From: Eledone cirrhosa
Taxonomy: Eukaryota
DNA: 64,000 nucleotides
Direction: 5' to 3'
NCBI GenBank assembly: GCA_964016885.1
Contig: OZ024763.1
Span: 17,794,001-17,858,000, forward strand
Shown here: piece after piece, positions 3,977 through 63,660 of the stretch
Layout of the letters: every line of letters starts with the position of its first letter
How positions within the stretch are numbered: position 1 is the first letter of the stretch
The notes under the pieces: generated by a model
The model's input: only the letters and a program-made list of their open reading frames with translations
Database searches by the model: none
Told to the model about the DNA's origin: nothing
Position numbers and translations under genes: made by a program

Positions 3977-4358
3977 TTAGTTTTGCAAGGTTTTTTATAT
4001 GAATTCGTGTGTCGAAACAAATATTGTTATACTTGGGAGGGCCACACCTGTGTAACATTGCCAGAATCAACAACGGAACACACTCACTGTTTGGTTGGTT
4101 TTCGCTTCTAGCTTCTGTGTCTTTTAAATCGGCAATCCAACTTACTTGGTCCCCAATGTTGCCATTGACCGACCGACGGTCAAAAATAATACAGATACAA
4201 CATAGACACAAATACATATATATAGTTTATCATAAATCTTTCGTTGCACATCTGCAACATCGTCAGTGATGTTATATTTTCAACCAAACAGTGAGTGTGT
4301 TCCGCCATCAACTCTGGCAACACCACACAAACATGACCCTCCCCAAGTATAACAATAT
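3977..4358. mobile_element. Family A element with partial inverted copy (fold-back)
   Basis: 4077-4097 is the reverse complement of 4281-4301, and ~4020-4045 of ~4332-4357; flanked by (TA)n. Confidence 0.7.
4229..4270 (-). ncRNA. Minimal type I hammerhead ribozyme motif
   Basis: AUCA-CUGACGA-U-GUUGCA(GAUG)UGCAAC-GAAA-GAUUU-A-UGAU: core, 6-bp stem II, 4-bp stem I. Confidence 0.7.
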
Positions 4359-12628: not shown

Positions 12629-12924
12629 TACATATATGTATATATATATATGTATATATATATACATATATGTATATTACATATATGTATATATATATAT
12701 ATATGTATATATATACACATTTGTATATATATGTATATATATATATATGTATATATATACACATTTGTATATATATGTATATATATATACACATATGTAT
12801 ATATATGTATATATACATATATGTATATATATATATGTGTATATATATATATATATGTATATATATATACACATGTATAAATATGTATATATATACATAT
12901 ATGTATATATATATGTATATATAT

Positions 12925-13350
12925 CATAAACCATGTCTATAGAATCACCAGATAAAATATATACTATTTCCTCTCCCAATTAGCATAATTGACTATATAA
13001 AAAATCGAATAGACCAGGCTATAAGAATAAGGCTTCTATGAAGAAATCTCCAACAAATAACCGAAACCAGCCCTTCTCGTCGGCCACAACGGAATATTTA
13101 TCGAATATATCGACAGCGTAATCGCCCAGATATACAGTCAATTAAACAGAATTAGGTGTAAAATAAACTAGGAGAAAATAGAATACATTTATTTACCTCT
13201 ACCATGGTTTCGTCCGCACTTTGAGATTTCCAGTAACTTTGGAAACTCGAGCATCGAACTCTTCAGGAGTTTTGCTCTAATCTAGACATTAAATTTTCCA
13301 AAGTGATCGCGCCAAGAATTCATTCAAAAATGGCTAAGAATCGTGACGTA
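12925..13350 (-). mobile_element. Non-coding hammerhead-bearing element, family P1
   Basis: 12925-13210 is the reverse complement of 39257-39553; adjacent to (TA)n. Confidence 0.7.
13196..13270 (-). ncRNA. Type I hammerhead ribozyme motif with extended stem II
   Basis: CUC-CUGAAGA-GUUCG...GAGUUUCCA(AAGUUAC)UGGAAAUCUC...CGGAC-GAAA-CCAUGG-UA-GAG; palindromic stem III ACCAUGGU; GUA cleavage triplet. Confidence 0.75.
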
Positions 13351-13446
13351 GCAGCGGTCAGGTTGGAAGGGATGTGGTAGTTGCTTACGGCTGGTGGCTT
13401 TTTGCTAGAAAGCACAGCACAATACAGCAAAATTTGTATCTCAATT

Positions 13447-13489
<43 letters not shown>

Positions 13490-13494
<5 letters not shown>

Positions 13495-13795
13495 GAAACA
13501 CACAGATACATGCGGACACACACATATACATGAATGCATCCACACCCAACCGTGAGTTAAGGGTGCCAACCTCACCGATGTTGCTCAATGAATGACTGGG
13601 ACAGACCAATCCGGTTGAACCAGACTGAACCAGTATCAGAGTTAAAAATACATTATGTAGAGAGAAGAAACATTTAGATATAATTAGTAATAAAATGTAT
13701 CATACCTAAACTGCTCCTAGATTCCTCGACTACGTAGTTTCGTGGCATAAACAAAAACTATACATCATAAAGATATAGAGTCCCTGCGAGGTCTG
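13490..13795. repeat. Dispersed ~300-bp repeat (second copy from ~63217)
   Basis: High-identity direct match to 63217-63521; both start at a (TA)n tract. Confidence 0.85.
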
Positions 13796-14068
13796 TATAT
13801 ATATATGTATATATATATGTTTATATATATATATGTATATATATCTATGTATATATACACATATGTATGTATATATATATATACACACACACACATATAT
13901 ATATATGTATATATGTATATATATATATATATATACACATATATGTATGAGATATATATATCTATGTATATATACACATATATGTATGTATATATATATA
14001 CACATATATGTATGAGATATATATATCTATGTATATATACACATATATGTATGTATATATATACACAT

Positions 14069-14166: not shown

Positions 14167-14512
14167 AGGCATATGGCTTAGTGGTTAGAGCATTGGTCTT
14201 GCAATCGAAAGGTTGTGAGTTCAATTCTCAGACTCGGTGATGTGTTGTTTCCTTGAGCAAGACACTTTATTTCACATTGCTCCAGTTTACTCAGCTGTAG
14301 AAATGAGATGATAGGACTGGGGTCCCTATCATTCCACTGCAAAAGTGGTCGTGGAGGTGCCATGATAAAAAAAGCACCCAGCACTCACTGTAAATGAGGT
14401 TGGTGTTAGGAAGGGCATCCAGCTGTAGAAATCAAGCCAGAATCAGTTCCCGTCCCAGCCTTGCAAGCAGGGAAAAGACGGACGTAAAATGAAATGATGA
14501 TGATGATGATGA
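14165..14512 (+). mobile_element. SINE S1
   Basis: Full-length match to 796-1126; inside (TA)n. Confidence 0.9.
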
Positions 14513-28645: not shown

Positions 28646-29044
28646 TATATGTATATATAATAAAATGTGGAGAGGAAGCACACAAATTAGGATATATATA
28701 TATATAGTAATAATAATAGATTTGAAGACTAAAATCCAAAGAGGGCTCGATAAGGATAAATATATATCAAATATATAAGAACCGTAGAGCAAATATTTAT
28801 TAAAATAACAGATTAAAGTTTAAGCTAAGAATCGCTGCTTTCCACCTTAACGGGATCTTCTGAAACTAATATATATATCAAGCTGTCTGCCGGCGAAACA
28901 ATTGTAACACACAATAAATTGAGTCCAGATGCATCACTGATTTTTCATTTTGTATTATATCACACTCTGCTCTGTAAGAACATAGAGTGCTCAACTGGCA
29001 TACCGCCTATGGAAGCATCATAGCTACCATCAAACACGCATATA

Positions 29045-29385: not shown

Positions 29386-29669
29386 GCTACCGTCTAGTTT
29401 TATTGCCCTGCACTTTTTTAAAACAGCTGTCGTTCCTCTCTAGTCTGCGTATATCCTCTGCACACAATGCCCAGGTCTCACTGCCATGTAACATTGCTGT
29501 TCGTATGCAGGCATCATACAGCCTGCCTTTCATTTTTAGAGAGAACCCTTTAGCGGCTAATAGTGGTATAAGCTCTCTGAATTTTTTCCATCCAGTTCTG
29601 ACTCTAGCTACTGTACTTTCAGAGCACCCTTCCCCACTGCTGATTTTGTCACCCAGGTAACGGAAGCTG
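29386..29669 (-). mobile_element. Internally deleted RTE family C fragment
   Basis: [20 protein letters not shown]..; matches 7690-7930. Confidence 0.9.
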
Positions 29670-29680
29670 TTGCTAGAATT

Positions 29681-30034
29681 GTGAAATCTACTGACGCATG
29701 CTCCCTCAGAGACTGCCCGATACGCCATGCGAACTGTTGCCTACGCACATACGTCATGTATAAGATAGAATGTGACAGGTGCAACCAATACTACATAGGT
29801 AGCACAATCCGACCTTTGCACATCCGGATCAAGGAACACACTAAAACCAGGGCCTCGTCTTTCCGGAAACACATAGACAAATGCGGAAACAAAGACGGAA
29901 GGCCCATTGTCACAATTCTAGCGACTGAAAGAAACGTCGGCACATTACGTATCAAGGAAGCGCTTTTTATCAAACGCCTGCAACCGCAAATAAACAACCG
30001 ATCAGAGAGAAGCGAAATGGGATGGCTGGTTTAA
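29681..30034 (+). pseudogene. Penelope-like element GIY-YIG endonuclease domain (5'-truncated ORF end)
   Basis: VMYKIECDRCNQYYIGSTIRPLHIRIKEH...LRIKEALFIKRLQPQIN: GIY-YIG signature with the CxxC between the motifs typical of PLEs. Confidence 0.85.
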
Positions 30035-30752
30035 GCTAACAAACGATGCAGCAACACACGCACACACACACACACAAAGGAGACAACTACACACACACAC
30101 GCACACACACACAGTAGCATTCCACCATACGAACATACTACACTGCCAATACAGAGGAACAAGGCAACAACACACGCACACACACACTCAAGCGAGACAA
30201 CAACACACGCACACACACACACAGTAACATTTAACAAACAGGCAGAGAATGGACTGACAGCTAGCGCCATCCCACTCCCTCATTCGGCCGCTGACCTCTG
30301 CCTGACCGACCCCATTTCACGCGCACGCGCGCTCTGCCGAATACCTCAGATATTCAAGACAACAATCAGCGGAGGACGCGTTTTGCACCTGTCCGACAGA
30401 CAACCTTTCCCCCACCCCGGAAAAACCCCCAGTTGATGGATGTGAATCCAAAATATATAGGGACTATTAAATCTCTCCCGAGGTAACTCTCTCTCGTGTT
30501 GTTATTTTATTTTATCCTTTACGCTCTATCCTTCATTCCTCTACACGTCTTATACACGCCACGCATCTCAACGTACACCCACTTACATCTCTATCTCCAC
30601 CACCGGATCTTGTTACCCGGAGATTTACTCATTTGCATTGTCGAGGCTTCCAAACGACTTAAAGATATTTACTTATTGTTCCACAATGCTTCAAGCAAAC
30701 TTCAATACTCTCATATATATATATATATATATATATGTGTGTCTATATATAC

Positions 30753-30790
<38 letters not shown>

Positions 30791-30829
30791 GATATTAATA
30801 AATGGAAACTATATTTATAAAACCATATT

Positions 30830-30894
30830 TATTTCATTATATATATTTCAAGGATACCAAGTTAAATTATGGTATGCCTTCATCAGACAAAATA
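30830..30894 (-). ncRNA. Type I hammerhead ribozyme motif
   Basis: UAUUUUGU-CUGAUGA-AGGCAUACCA..UGGUAUCCUU-GAAA-UAUAUA-UA-AUGAAAUA. Confidence 0.7.
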
Positions 30895-30904
30895 CAATAT
30901 ATTG

Positions 30905-30969
30905 TATTTTGTCTGATGAAGGCATACCATAATTTAATTTGGTATCCCTGAAATATGTATAATGAAATA
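30905..30969 (+). ncRNA. Type I hammerhead ribozyme motif
   Basis: UAUUUUGU-CUGAUGA-AGGCAUACCA..UGGUAUCCCU-GAAA-UAUGUA-UA-AUGAAAUA; 8-bp stem I with wobbles. Confidence 0.7.
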
Positions 30970-31099
30970 AATATGGTTTTATAAATATAGTTTCCATTTA
31001 TTAATATCGTATATCTACTCCAAATACTTGTCGAGTGCTTTATATCAGTTATAAACATATTTACTTGTTGTATCCCAACAATTTAAATAGAAATTTTGC

Positions 31100-33918: not shown

Positions 33919-36900
33919 ATCATTATCATCACCGTTTTACGTCCGTTCTTCCACGCTAGCATGGGTTAGACGGGTTGTCCTGTTGTGGGCAGTGTCTGGT
34001 CGGCTGACCATGCCTTGCTCATACAGGAACTGATCTGGCTTGATTTCTACAGCTGGATGCCCTTCCTAACACCAACCTCATTTACAGTGAGTGCTGGGTG
34101 CTTTTTCGTGGCGCCTACACGTCCACTTTACAGTGTGGGCTGGGTGCTTTTTTTGCCGTGGCACCTCCACGACCACCTTGCGGTGGGGGGGGGGGGGGGG
34201 CATATTGTTTATATGCTTCAGTATGTACCCATGGGAGGTCGGGTACCCTGTATTACTGCGTGACGCCAGAAGTCACGGTCGTGTGTCATTGACTTTGAGA
34301 GGTGTAGTTGGGTAAGGTCGGCTTTTATCACCTCATCCCAAGTCATCTTGGGTCTCCCCACTCCGCGGTTTCCATCAACTTCTAGTGCTCTGTACCTTTT
34401 TATGCAGCTGTCATCCTTCATACGCATCACATGTCCATACCAGCGTAACCGCCTCTCCTGCACGCAGCATTTGATTCCTCTTATGCTCAGTCTCTCTCTC
34501 AATTCATTTATGCTTTGTCGTTCACGTATATTACTGTTACACATCCATCGGAGCATGCAGGCTTCGTTTCTCTCTAATCTACGTAAGTCTTCCACCTTCA
34601 GCGCCCAGGTCTCACTACCATGCAACATCGCTGTTCGGATACACGCATCATACAGTCTGCCTTTCATTCTGAGGGAGAAGCCTTTTGCAGCTAGCAGTGG
34701 TAGTAGTTCCCTAAACTTCTTCCATCCCGTTCTTACCCTAGTTATTGTACTTTCTGAGCACCCACCTCCGTTGCTAATTCGGTCACCTAGGTAGCAGAAG
34801 CTGTCTACTGTTTCTACAGGGCCCTCCCAGAGATTGGTGGTACTTGTTTCCTGTGGCTGTTTGCTTGCTGTTTCAGCACAGCTGCTGCATGTGAATCCTA
34901 CATTCTTAATTAAGCTTCCTGAGATCCCGCTACATCTCTTGTGTACCCATTGTTTGCATTTGGGGCAGAGAATGGAGTTCCTACCTACACCTTTCCTACA
35001 TACTGAGCAAGGCCATTTCCCTGAGGGGATCTGGGTTCTGTTTTCTCGTCTACTTATAAGGACCTTAGTCTTTGTCATGTTGACTTTGAGGCCCTTTCTC
35101 TCTAGTCCCTGCTTCCAGGTTTGGAATTTATTCTCTAGTTCTACCATAGATTCAGCTATGAGTGCGAGGTCATCAGCATACAGGAGTTCCCATGGGCATC
35201 CGGTCTTAAACTCCTCCGTTATTGCCTGCAGGACTATGATGAACAGGAGAGGGCTAAGAACAGAGCCCTGGTGGACCCCAACCTGTACGCTAAATTCCTC
35301 GCTATACTCATTGCCAATCCTAACTTTGCTGACTGCTCCCCTATACATGGCTTGTACCGCTTTCACAAGCCATTCATCTACTCCTAGTTTTCTAAGAGCC
35401 CACCAGATTACTGCACGTGGAACTCTGTCAAAGGCTTTCTCAAGGTCGACAAATGCCAAGTAGAGTGGCTTACTTTTAGCTAGGTACTTTTCCTGTAATT
35501 GCCTCACAAGGAAGAGGGCATCAGTGGTGCCTTTCCCTGGTACAAACCCAAATTGCATCTCGTCTATATTCACCCGGTCCCTAATCAGCTGTGCTATAAC
35601 TCTTTCTGTTACTTTCATGACCTGGTCCATCAACTTTATACCTCTATAGTTTCCTCTATCTAGTGCATCGCCTTTACCTTTGTAGCAGTTGACAATGATG
35701 CTACTGCACCAATCTTTTGGTATGGCCCCCTCTAGTATTACCTGGTTAACGATACGTGTGGTTATAGTGTGACCTACAGACCCAGATGCCTTCAGCATCT
35801 CGGCAGCTATACCCGATGGACCGGTTGCCTTCCCTATCTTCATATCTCTGATTGCCTTACTTACTACGCTGCCGCTGACTTGTACTGCTGGTCCCTCTAT
35901 AGGGTCTACGTGGGGTAGGGTCTCTTCTTCCCATGCATTCTCCTCATTTAGTAATCTATCATAATGACTCTTCCATGCATCTTTCTTCTCAGCACTTGTG
36001 AGGGCAAGCTCACCTTTATCATTCCGGATACACTTCTCTCCAATGACATCACAACTATCTCTGACACACTGCCTCGCAATCTTGAATACCTCCTGTTTCT
36101 GGTCCTCACGTTGTAAAACATGCTTGAATTTTCTATCCTCTGCTTCCCTCCTAGCTAAGTATACTTGTCGCCTAGCTTCCCTCTTGGTCTCTATGTAATG
36201 TACCCTGCTCCCCCCGTTCTTCCATTCTTTCCATGCCTGTCTCTTGGCCTTGACTGCTTCATCTACCTTATTGTTCCACCACCAAGTCACTCTCCTCCTG
36301 CTTGAGGTCTTACTCCAGCCACAAACCTCATCCGTCGCCTCTAGTAAGTTATTTTTTAGGAACTCCCAGTTCTCTTCTACGTTAAATGTCTCTATCTGTC
36401 CTTCTTTACTGTCGTAGGCGTTGAGTAAAATATCTTTAAATCTGTTACTGGTTGAGGGGACTTTCAGCTTCCAGATCTTTCTTCTCCAGGTTGGCCTCTG
36501 TTTCAGGGCCCGTCTAGTTCTGACCGTGAGGTCGCTGACAACTAAGCTATGTTGGGATGTACATTCCTCACTAGGGAAGGCTTTTGTGTTTACGACCGTC
36601 CATCTGTCACGTCCTCTGATGAGGATAAAATCTAACTGACTAGAGTGCTCCCCTGATCTATAGGTGATCAGGTGGTTGTCGGGTTTTTTAAAGTTTGTGT
36701 TACATATCGACATGTCATTGGCGTCGCAGAATTCTAGAAGTCTGAATCCTTCCTCATTCCTTGTGCCAACTCCATGGCCTCCATGTACTCTATTGAAGCC
36801 GTCGCAGTGTTTACCTACGTGTCCGTTAAAATCTCCTGCAATGATTAGGAAGTCCTTGTCGTCTGTTAGAGCAGTAGTGTGTATTAGGGACTCGTAAAAC

Positions 36901-38145
36901 CTATCCTTAAGTTCGTCTGGCAGCCCCGATTGGGGTGCGTAAGCTGATATTATTGTGGTAATTGTCTTATTCAGGACTAGTCTGAGTTTAATGATTCTTG
37001 CATTTACCCTGTACACTGAGATTACTTTATCTACCCACTTGTCAGCTAATAGTATACCTACACCACCCATCCCATCGTCATTTCCCACCCAGAAAAATTT
37101 GTAGCACTGGCTTTTTCCTACAAGGACTCTAGCAGACCCTCCTCTCCATCTAGTCTCTTGCACATAGCATACATCAACTTCCTTTCGCTCTAGCATTTCT
37201 ACGATTTCTCCTGCTCTTGCTTTCATTGAGCCTACATTGATGGTACCAACTCGGAGTTTTGGGCATTTGTCGACACTCGTAGGGGAGGGTCTCTGGGTTG
37301 GCGCTTCACGTGGGTGCTTGGTAGCTCGCAGATTCATATTTCATCTATTGATTCAGAGTTGCTCGTGTATTCCCAGCTCATCCATCCATAACGGTGGGAA
37401 AATTGAGGGCTAGAAGAACAGTGGTGGTGGGGTAATGGCAGGGTGTGTTGGGATGCGCCAGAGGAGGAGAGAGTTAGTTAGGCAGGTAGTAGCAGCAGCA
37501 GTGGAAATGACATGCTAGGTTTGATTGGTCGAATAGACTATGGTGGTGTGTGGGGGTGGGGGGGGAGGGAAATTGTGAGGTAGGAACTGAGGGTCGCATG
37601 GTAAATATCCAAGTTAATACTACATCAGTAAAATTAACAATAATAACGTCATGAAAAACTACTAAGAGAAACCCTCGAAAATTTATCGCTAATACAGCAG
37701 GGAACATCATAATATTAACGACAATATGTAGGCTAAAATACCTTCGTAGATTAGATGGATGGCTGGAAAAATTGGAATCAGCTCTAGTGATACATTTTAG
37801 CAGAGAAGAATGGGAAAGTGTCTTATCTCTTCAATATTTTCAGATTGAATGAATTAGGTTAAAGACAGGGTAGTAGCCTTAAAGAAGTGCATAGAGAGGG
37901 GGGGTAGGAACTGAGGGTCGCATGGTAAATAACTGAGAGAGATACAATAGGATTAGAATACCGCATGGTAAATATCCAAGTTAATAAGTTAATACTACAT
38001 CAGTAAAATTAACAATAATAACGTCATGAAAAACTACTAAGAGAAACCCTCGAAAATTTATCGCTAATACAGCAGGGAAAATTTAACGCTAATACAGCAG
38101 GGAACATCATAATATTAACGACAATATGTAGGCTAAAATACCTTC

Positions 38146-38574: not shown

Positions 38575-38762
38575 ATCATAAAATATGTCTTTAGAATCAC
38601 TAGATATAATATAAACCATGGTAGATACTTATTTTTTGATACCCAGATTCCTGATGATTTCTAAAGACTGAAACAGTTCTAGTCCTGTAGAATCTCATCT
38701 ATATTAAAACTATATATATATATATATATTTATATATGGCCATGCATATATATACATACATG

Positions 38763-60192: not shown

Positions 60193-60555
60193 TCATCATC
60201 ATCATCATATTACGTCCACTTTTCCCTGCTTGCAAAGGTGGGACAGGTCCTATTCAGCACAGCATCTCTCCACTTGTCACGGTCCTTCGTCATCTCCTCC
60301 GTGAGCTTCAGCGATCTGAGGTCTGCTCGCACCACCTCACCACCATGTTTTTCATGTTCTTCTTCGACTATGTCTTCCTTCTACTGGGATTTCTTGGCAC
60401 TTCTTTACCCAGCGGTCATCCTCCATGCACATCACATATCCATACCATCTCAGTCTTCTCTCCTGCACACTACAGCCTATCCTTCTTATACACAGTTTCT
60501 CTCTCAACTCATCTATACTTGGTCGTTCACGCACATTGACCATTGACATTGCACA
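60193..60555 (-). mobile_element. RTE family B 3' fragment (diverged)
   Basis: [23 protein letters not shown]; (CAT)n tail. Confidence 0.85.
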
Positions 60556-60796: not shown

Positions 60797-61410
60797 ATAG
60801 CTTCCGGTACCTAGGAGATCAGATTAGCATGGGAGGAGGGTGTTCCGAGGCCATAGTATCTAGAATAAGGACGGGTTGGAAGAAGTTTAGGGAGCTGCTT
60901 CCTCTGTTGACGAAGAAGGGTTTCTCCCTGCGTACGAAAGGCCGGTTGTATGATGCCTGTGTGAGGAGCGCGATGCTGCATGGTAGTGAGACATGGGCAG
61001 CAACTGCAGAGGATATGCGACGGCTGGAGAGAAATGAGGCAAGCATGCTCCGTTGGATGTGCAATGTCAATGTGCGTGAACGACCCAGCATGGATGTGTT
61101 GAGAGAGAAACTGTGTCTGAGAGGGATAGAATGTAGTGTACTGGAGAGGAGACTGAGGTGGTATGGACATGTGATGCGCATGGAAGATGACCGATGGGTG
61201 AAGAAGTGCCAGGAAATGCCAGTTGAAGGAAGACGTGGTAGAGGTAGACCACAAAAAACATGGGCGGAGGTGGTGAGAACAGACCTCAGATCATTGAAGC
61301 TCACGGTGGAGATGACGAGGGACCGTGACGAGTGGAGAGATGCTGTGCTGAATAAGACCCGTCCCACCCTTGCAAGCAGGGAAAAGCGGACGTAAAATGA
61401 TGATGATGAT
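60797..61410 (+). mobile_element. 5'-truncated RTE LINE (family B)
   Basis: Near-identical to 5405-6028. Confidence 0.95.
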
Positions 61411-61543
61411 ATACATGAATGTACATATATTTAAAAACATTTTGAAGGTCTTTCACTATGAATTTAAAGTGGTGACTTTAGTCACATACCTAGCTTCAGC
61501 AAAAACAAAGGGAAATAACCGACGCGTTTCTCGCTGTTTAGCC

Positions 61544-62654: not shown

Positions 62655-62694
<40 letters not shown>

Positions 62695-62728
62695 TATAAG
62701 ATCAAAAGATGGTTAAAAGAGTTCCAAG

Positions 62729-62799
62729 TATTTTATTATGCGCATTTCAAAAACAAATATCATCATGGGATGATATCTGCGTTTTCATCAGATAAAATA
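62729..62799 (-). ncRNA. Type I hammerhead ribozyme (mirror of 62998-63068)
   Basis: Exact reverse complement of the plus-strand motif. Confidence 0.8.
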
Positions 62800-62997
62800 G
62801 GGATACATGATATGAAGCTTAAAAAACACTTGTGAATAGTGAAGTTTTAAATCAACATAAGAAAAATAATTTAAGATTGATGTATGATATTGGGAAAAAG
62901 TGAGGGGGGGGGGGGTAAGGAAGAGGAGGAGATGAGAGTAAAGAATGGTGGGGGAGGAGTATAACAAGTGTTTTTTAAGCTTCATATCATGTATCCC

Positions 62998-63068
62998 TAT
63001 TTTATCTGATGAAAACGCAGATATCATCCCATGATGATATTTGTTTTTGAAATGCGCATAATAAAATA
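62998..63068 (+). ncRNA. Type I hammerhead ribozyme
   Basis: Stem I UAUUUUAU/AUAAAAUA; CUGAUGA; stem II GCAGAUAUCAUC(CCAU)GAUGAUAUUUGU; GAAA; palindromic stem III AUGCGCAU; predicted cut after A63060. Confidence 0.8.
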
Positions 63069-63216
63069 CTTGGAACTCTTTTAACCATCTTTTGATCTTA
63101 TATATTATTTATATTCCAGTCCTACAAACTGTAGAGTGCTTCTTATCCGATATCTGCATTGCTTTATTGTGCTACAATAAAACTCACCTCCTACATATAT
63201 ATATATATATATATAT

Positions 63217-63660
63217 TTAGAAACACACAGATATATGCGGACACACATATATATACATGAATGCATCCGCACCCAACTGTGAGTTAAGGGTGCCAACTTC
63301 ACCGATGTTGCTCAATGAATGACTGGGACAGACCAATTCAGTTTGAACCAGACTGAACCAGTATCAGAGTTAAAAATACATTATGAAGAGAGAAGAAACA
63401 TTTAGATATAATTAGTAATAAAATGTATCATACCTAAACTGTTCCTAAATTCCTCGACTACGTAGTTTCGTGGCATAAACAAAAACAATATATCAAAGAT
63501 ATAGAGTCCTTGCGAGGTCTGCCGACTTATCAAGAGGATACCTCATTTTACTAGTCTCAAGAACGCGTCTACACGACGTGAGAAAGAATCCCAAAAGGCA
63601 GAGGGGGAGATAGTCACGCGATATAACGGTCGAGAAACAGAGCTAAGCCTCTTATAACCA
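63217..63660. repeat. Longer copy of the dispersed repeat at 13490-13795
   Basis: Direct match over ~300 bp; the extent beyond that is inferred from the next (TA)n tract. Confidence 0.75.

Follow-up and report, generated by a model that had tools for sequence, protein, structure and literature searches.

A hammerhead-bearing inverted cassette in the genome of Eledone cirrhosa, very probably the truncated end of a Penelope-like element

Introduction

Inverted truncated copies, one-sided tails and a bias towards (TA)n have been described as typical of Penelope-like elements (PLEs) (PMC8557442, PMC8969392). Equally, pairs of PLE hammerheads on opposite strands, 100-700 bp apart, were reported in 2014, and metazoan PLE hammerheads have been characterized as poor cutters in vitro (PMC4209133). 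The hammerhead of the Anolis PLE requires protein and is dispensable for insertion (PMC11167929). The formation of tandem and inverted PLE structures and the role of the hammerhead have been named open questions (PMC8557442). In work on Anolis Poseidon, PLE protein was found to cut and extend both strands in vitro, to use uncleaved RNA and to start at two sites bounding the tail; the available text of that study offers no explanation of inverted copies (PMC11167929).

The locus considered here lies in a 64,000-nucleotide stretch of the Eledone cirrhosa genome (the window; assembly GCA_964016885.1, contig OZ024763.1, positions 17,794,001 to 17,858,000 of the forward strand), and all coordinates are those of the window. 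It had been singled out by a sequence-only reading as a dedicated fold-back unit with two hammerhead ribozymes.

Anatomy of the cassette

Positions 62694-62833 and 62964-63103 are exact reverse complements with 130 bp between them, so that the 140-bp perfect inverted arms of the sequence-only reading are confirmed, and the homology reaches further to 62685 and 63114 once one 2-bp AT indel is allowed. The cassette is larger than these arms and asymmetric, a long tailless copy being set against a short tailed copy.

62660..62689, no strand: (TA)n run, left boundary; likely insertion target, overlapping the AT-rich end of the left copy
62685..62963, minus strand: 279-nt tailless copy, the longer of the two, of the element's 3' end (arm homology and strand-switch continuity)
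62964..62968, no strand: head-to-head junction with the 5-bp microhomology ACAAG (contig divergence past the spacer)
62964..63194, plus strand: short 5'-truncated tailed copy, 231 nt (arm homology and tail)
63115..63194, plus strand: tail of 80 nt, in the right copy only
63195..63215, no strand: (AT)n run, right boundary (sequence)

The left copy, which comprises a pyrimidine-rich upstream part, the inferred promoter region, the hammerhead and the inner 3' end, runs into (TA)n without the 80-nt tail, whereas in the right copy the tail precedes (AT)n; the two overlap by 150 bp. The (TA)n neighbourhood noted previously is thus found on both flanks, which makes a target-site duplication unreadable. 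The 130-bp 'spacer' is sequence that naturally lies upstream in the left copy, as in other copies 62834 joins 62964 on the opposite strand, a continuity seen in the runs X1 (11 contigs), X8 and X9 (271 reads, 24 starts). This joint was rejected as family-wide proof of a fold-back, representing native continuity of the left copy. Fifteen X1 contigs agree with the spacer through 62968 and thereafter continue into other purine-rich sequence; since other copies extend the purine-rich stretch beyond 62964-62968, the focal junction is a 5-bp microhomology, ACAAG. The exact focal junction 62963/62964 is not among the read or contig rows listed.

No frame of at least 90 aa with a domain match occurs in the cassette, in agreement with the non-autonomous character proposed earlier. 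The insertion is probably young, as also proposed, given 0 substitutions between the arms in 140 bp. At 63070 both arms carry T, a minority letter in the family (in X1, A accounts for 1.40 of 1.72 million depth), as a single donor would produce.

Identity of the cassette

With its hammerhead, one-sided tail and (TA)n target the layout equals the published form of PLE insertions, and the cassette is very probably a truncated PLE-type end, in line with the affinity given by the sequence-only reading. Features shared with EN+ PLE insertions (Craig et al. 2021, PMC8557442; Arkhipova et al. 2013, PMC3846280) are the head-to-head inverted 5'-truncated copy at the 5' end, insertion into (TA)n, the junction microhomology, in the 3' repeat end a type I hammerhead whose helix III is palindromic, and a tail at one end only, which at 80 nt exceeds the 30-40 bp described. 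A cap-like C at the fixed end of the junctions listed and a DPE-like 8-mer at +28 may mark a putative internal promoter. Unlike those insertions, the focal one has neither ORF nor partial tandem; no direct repeat of the focal unit, whether as a partial tandem forming pLTRs or as head-to-tail units, occurs within the 64-kb window; a partial tandem is a feature of full-length copies and would not be expected of stumps. PLE membership is read from architecture, the defining RT plus GIY-YIG ORF not having been found in the cassette, and the putative link to a GIY-YIG/CCHH frame at 29564-30034 is an indirect one through a chain of tail similarity.

Anolis Poseidon (Frangieh et al. 2024, PMC11167929) equally has two 3' ends bounding the tail and an AT-rich target, and its template is uncleaved RNA, as would apply to the focal family; its ORF starts inside the hammerhead, whereas no frame follows the focal one. 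Animal non-LTR retrozymes (bioRxiv 10.64898/2026.07.22.740005) are likewise short and non-coding, carry a type I hammerhead and are related to PLE pLTRs. They are, however, head-to-tail tandem units, and the focal head-to-head pair cannot yield a ribozyme-bounded monomer; identity as a tandem retrozyme was rejected on the head-to-head pair and the absence of head-to-tail units from the window.

Hammerhead motifs

Each arm carries one type I hammerhead motif:

62729..62799, minus strand: motif of the left copy, predicted cut between 62737 and 62736
62998..63068, plus strand: motif of the right copy, predicted cut between 63060 and 63061

Stem I (TATTTTAT/ATAAAATA) has 8 bp, the core consists of CUGAUGA, GAAA and the triplet AUA, and the palindrome AUGCGCAU forms stem III. 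Of the 16 positions of stem II, 15 are paired, two of these as G-U, and the fourth is a C-U mismatch; the 12 inner pairs are contiguous. The conserved core (C3 U4 G5 A6 N7 G8 A9, G12 A13 A14, A15.1-U16.1, H17) and the three stems are present, and the observation of two complete, outward-facing hammerhead motifs stands. A strict descriptor finds four motifs in the window, the focal pair and a second pair at 30838-30961, against a chance level of 1 match in 60 dinucleotide-shuffled windows. The search with Rfam hammerhead models that the sequence-only reading had suggested gave no match, neither at the gathering score nor with E values as high as 10.

Metazoan PLE hammerheads (Cervera and de la Pena 2014, PMC4209133) resemble the focal motifs in type I topology, full core, long helix II, short palindromic helix III suited to dimers and occurrence as opposite-strand pairs. 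They differ in having 7-8 bp in helix II against 16 positions here and an extra base between 9 and 10.1 that the focal hammerhead lacks; the focal helix I has 8 bp, and A10.1-U11.1 takes the place of G-C (PMC4209133). All four window motifs have A-U as the first pair of stem II, so that the usual G10.1-C11.1, listed as highly conserved in PLE hammerheads (PMC4209133), is absent from each of them; the family variant A63013G turns this pair into G-U.

Variants were compared from 40 of 80 rows, the 20 between 62978 and 63079 being checked against the structure. Pairing is kept in 8 of 8 paired-stem variants listed, against 27 of 50 possible transitions that would do so. These variants are one-sided and cannot be phased; in this form the retained pairing agrees with the earlier reading. 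Among the same 40 of 80 rows no variant affects a core position save the variable N7. G63054T, which would break the helix III palindrome, is seen only in X9 and is absent from X1, X5 and X8; together with a pile of read ends at 63051 (X9) it was disregarded as probably reflecting a single restriction tag.

Folding

In folding models, which ignore tertiary contacts and proteins, the 71-nt motif alone favours a slightly different fold, the hammerhead lying 6.0 kcal/mol above it. Two copies co-fold as a dimer (-41.1 versus 2 x -14.8) in which both stems I and II form and stem III is an intermolecular helix of 8 bp, so that the dimer-type hammerhead proposed earlier is reproduced at the level of folding. 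In the full single copy the hammerhead fold costs 10-11 kcal/mol, and stem I has a modelled probability of 0.01 in single-arm RNA from the inferred start. The cost is about 98 kcal/mol in two-arm RNA (62685-63186) on either strand and 95 kcal/mol in the nascent plus-strand two-arm RNA, and as each two-arm RNA holds a single sense ribozyme, a dimer partner in cis is lacking.

These values count against the switch between self-cleavage and dsRNA that the sequence-only reading had envisaged. A read-through transcript is predicted to be plain long dsRNA rather than a switch, and RNA from the internal start would run outward without the antisense arm. The ribozyme is predicted to be cargo of the repeat end that requires a second RNA or protein for cutting, and the inverted layout can be inferred to be a by-product of insertion with no switch. 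Head-to-head copies, if read through, would give 150 bp of perfect dsRNA, which is true of any inverted repeat.

The repeat family and its junctions

Eight runs from four studies, none of them recorded as RNA, contain part of the sequence, the best with 63% of the sampled words, and 4 of 11 listed runs were compared with 62834-63190. Family matches over this stretch, mostly 90-99% alike, amount to 4604 contigs in X1, 58 in X5, 7 in X8 and 5240 reads in X9; contig depth gives no copy number. The sequence matches indicate a hammerhead-bearing family that is abundant and present in at least three coded organisms. Copies that stop at 63114 and pass into (AT)n occur in X1 (57 contigs), X5 (2) and X9 (273 reads), others running through the tail, whose outer end at 63194 lies outside the compared stretch 62834-63190. 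A subfamily departs after 63093 into a different AT-rich end (X1, X5, X9). Among frames of at least 90 aa with a domain match, none for RT or endonuclease was linked to the family, and pattern scans of metagenome contigs and viral contigs gave 0 matches.

Junctions were taken from the rows listed, 15 of 53 and 12 of 27, of which 11 and 11 start at 62856-62859 and give 19 distinct junctions; this set excludes four opposite-strand rows and one 63105 row. All 19 junctions listed have one side that breaks off at 62860, a position 124 nt upstream of the cut site. In 19 of 19 this position has T, the family letter, in place of which the focal copy carries A. This T is followed by C in 10 junctions, by T in 6, by the native G in 2 and by A in 1, while C would be expected at 0.17-0.18 (excess p about 0.0004-0.0007). 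For 8 of the 19 the inserted letters are unknown and none were assumed; 8 of the remaining 11 have C. Most of these Cs also occur in the partner as microhomology; two do not. The partners start at 18 different places from 62984 to 63165, six of them inside the tail, and none of the 18 listed at the cut site 63061. Breaks within about 21 nt of the start of the compared stretch are invisible in this comparison, as are the far ends of the copies.

62860..62860, minus strand: inferred transcription start (+1) of the family (T in 19/19 and C next in 10/19 junctions listed)
62826..62833, minus strand: DPE-like 8-mer ACAAGTGT, 6/8 to RGACGTGY, at +28 from the inferred start

The internal promoter of Penelope includes the downstream element RGACGTGY (PMC2377424). 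The 8-mer, found post hoc, is the sole 6-of-8 match to this element within 176 nt downstream of the putative start. The usual position of a DPE is +28. In L1, capped full-length insertions are marked by an additional G at the 5' end (PMC11702581), and because of this precedent the fixed end with its excess of C suggests run-off of the cDNA from a capped 5' end. Judged from the junctions of these related copies, it is likely that the copied RNA was capped and not cut by the ribozyme; alternatively, the excess may reflect a source subfamily with C at 62861. The focal locus itself is no run-off copy, since its long arm passes the inferred start, where it carries the non-family letter, by 103 nt.

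A second cassette and a neighbouring PLE end

A similar arrangement occurs elsewhere in the window:

30790..31099, no strand: second cassette, of another family, with two hammerhead motifs (descriptor and arm alignment)

Its order is (TA)n, tailless inverted copy, tailed copy and (TA)n, without spacer and with a perfect palindromic centre, 3 substitutions between the arms and a tail on the right only. Beyond core, stem I and tail it has little in common with the focal cassette. Its stem II differs in sequence and still pairs, again with a pyrimidine mismatch at the fourth position, and in the right copy the second and third pairs change from A-U to G-C. Co-folding of its AU-rich stem III palindromes gave no hammerhead dimer.

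The focal tail and the tail of this second cassette align with a score of 32.5, which 0 and 4 of 3000 background segments reach. The second tail in turn matches the 3' end behind an endonuclease frame at 29564-30034 with a score of 42.5 (0 of 3000 background); compared directly, the focal tail and that endonuclease-coding end show a weak likeness whose score is reached by 3-5.5% of background. Likeness of the tail to the pieces at 28960-29040, 13492 and 12925 was rejected as not above background. The frame has a GIY-YIG with CCHH pattern (Pfam GIY-YIG E 0.00024, just under its cut-off); no longer relatives of this fragment were found among 172 candidates, and 6 of near length among 11 candidates. 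The stretch 29564-30712 represents a PLE 3' end with the GIY-YIG/CCHH frame, a long 3' region, a tail and then (TA)n; near 30430-30465 a possible degenerate small hammerhead can be made out by eye.

Origin of the inverted arm

The reading cautiously favoured here is a single truncated insertion of the PLE 3' pseudo-LTR, made in two priming events from one capped, uncut sense RNA; twin priming as the source of the inverted arm is held slightly more probable than an even chance. PLE endonuclease/RT supplied in trans would nick both strands of the (TA)n run. One DNA end would prime reverse transcription at the inner start (the equivalent of 63114) and run ahead, and in many copies the resulting cDNA would reach the capped 5' end at 62860; that of the focal copy would go 103 nt past 62860, so that its template would be a longer or read-through RNA. 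The other DNA end would prime at the outer start (63194), copy the tail and stop early, whereupon the two cDNA 3' ends would anneal at ACAAG and be filled in. Twin priming on one RNA would account for a tail on one side only, for arms that are identical and have a minority letter in common, and for the short tailed partners. In L1 twin priming, too, the second target end primes the same RNA, the inversion junctions show microhomology and a cap-derived extra G occurs; L1 segments, however, are adjacent and barely overlap, whereas the 150-bp focal overlap needs strand displacement or a second RNA (PMC11702581). In the literature searched no proposal of twin priming or cap run-off for PLE inversions was found, and older subscription papers and supplements may hold one.

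Extended to the whole family, the proposal would be that inverted PLE ends arise as both target strands prime one capped, ribozyme-uncut sense RNA, the inner primer running off the cap and adding the extra base and the outer stalling behind. This generalization is put forward tentatively, at somewhat less than even probability.

The close rival is a second arm copied from DNA, in which the same PLE end is inserted, one cDNA runs off, its 3' end folds back and copies itself, and one tail is lost in resolution. Although rather unlikely, it fits the focal locus nearly as well if one tail was trimmed. Identity of the arms over 140 bp agrees with it, a short complement is present (ACAAG on CTTGT at 62829-62833), the second cassette (30790-31099) has a perfect palindromic centre, and two of the 19 junctions listed carry TGTTG-type letters that mirror the fixed end; furthermore, self-priming has been proposed for rotifer Penelope (PMC3846280). 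On the other hand, neither arm contains the other, the left having 130 additional upstream bases and the right the 80-nt tail, so that an extra trimming step is needed, and 6 of the 18 listed partners begin inside the tail, which a tailless first cDNA could not supply. Extension of both strands by PLE protein in vitro (PMC11167929) equally speaks for twin priming rather than fold-back.

The dedicated non-autonomous fold-back unit of the sequence-only reading, ribozyme-processed and with a cleavage/dsRNA switch, is very improbable, even though both motifs are complete, 8 of 8 listed stem variants keep pairing and the family is abundant. Head-to-head junctions differ between copies, with 18 different partner starts listed, which shows in the sequences compared that the family does not move as a fixed fold-back unit, and the 130 bp between the arms belong to the left copy's upstream part. 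Processing by the ribozyme does not agree with a fixed end 124 nt upstream of the cut and 0 of 18 listed partner starts at 63061, nor does a switch with the 98 kcal/mol gap of the two-arm RNA and the stem I probability in single-arm RNA.

An assembly or library fold-back artefact is still less probable. It could account for the perfect identity of the arms, for the focal junction not being among the listed rows and for no piece spanning the stretch; against it stand the 2-bp indel between the arms, a left end that coincides with the family end in three runs, the like layout with 3 substitutions at 30790-31099 and head-to-head junctions in raw reads of another sample. Least probable is a MITE or foldback DNA transposon with terminal inverted repeats, which the long inverted repeats around a short non-coding centre might recall, but the right repeat is not terminal (80-nt tail), the inner boundaries vary, and hammerheads with conserved cores and a cap-like extra base are present.

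Further repeats in the window

A third repeat is represented by two minus-strand copies (63218-63660 and 13492-13796) between (TA)n runs, with GAAA and a 10-base palindrome; one copy directly adjoins the right (AT)n of the focal cassette, and the copy at 13.7 kb breaks off inside the presumed stem II. A fourth family (12924-13449) has a minus-strand hammerhead candidate at 13266-13200 with a stem I of 3 bp and the palindrome ACCATGGT, and 3' halves of this family adjoin (TA)n at 38612 and 39256. More halves or candidates that resemble hammerheads lie near (TA)n at 61530, 28850-29040 and 4233-4266; with 0.55 chance matches per window in the relaxed scan, single ones are uncertain. Other retroelements are an apparently intact LINE ORF on the minus strand (34218-37340), whose 1039-aa frame comprises an AP-type endonuclease, an RT and a PHD finger; a head-to-head pair of LINE-like 3' ends tailed by (ATG)n (60195-60549 and 60797-61410; 87% alike, probably separate insertions); and, at 14173, 29383 and 56470, the tRNA-like heads (95% alike) of a SINE of about 346 bp.

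Implications

The focal locus is ordinary PLE debris of a kind already known. Its family, however, combines a sharp inferred RNA start with two 3' ends and a very large number of short head-to-head copies. It represents a test case in which the genome alone could show whether the templates were uncut sense RNAs with a cap, and whether RNA or a fold-back gave rise to the second arm. If true, family-wide twin priming would replace the antisense self-priming model; equally, the 5' end of the copied RNA would not be set by the hammerhead, and thousands of natural junctions would be available for testing.
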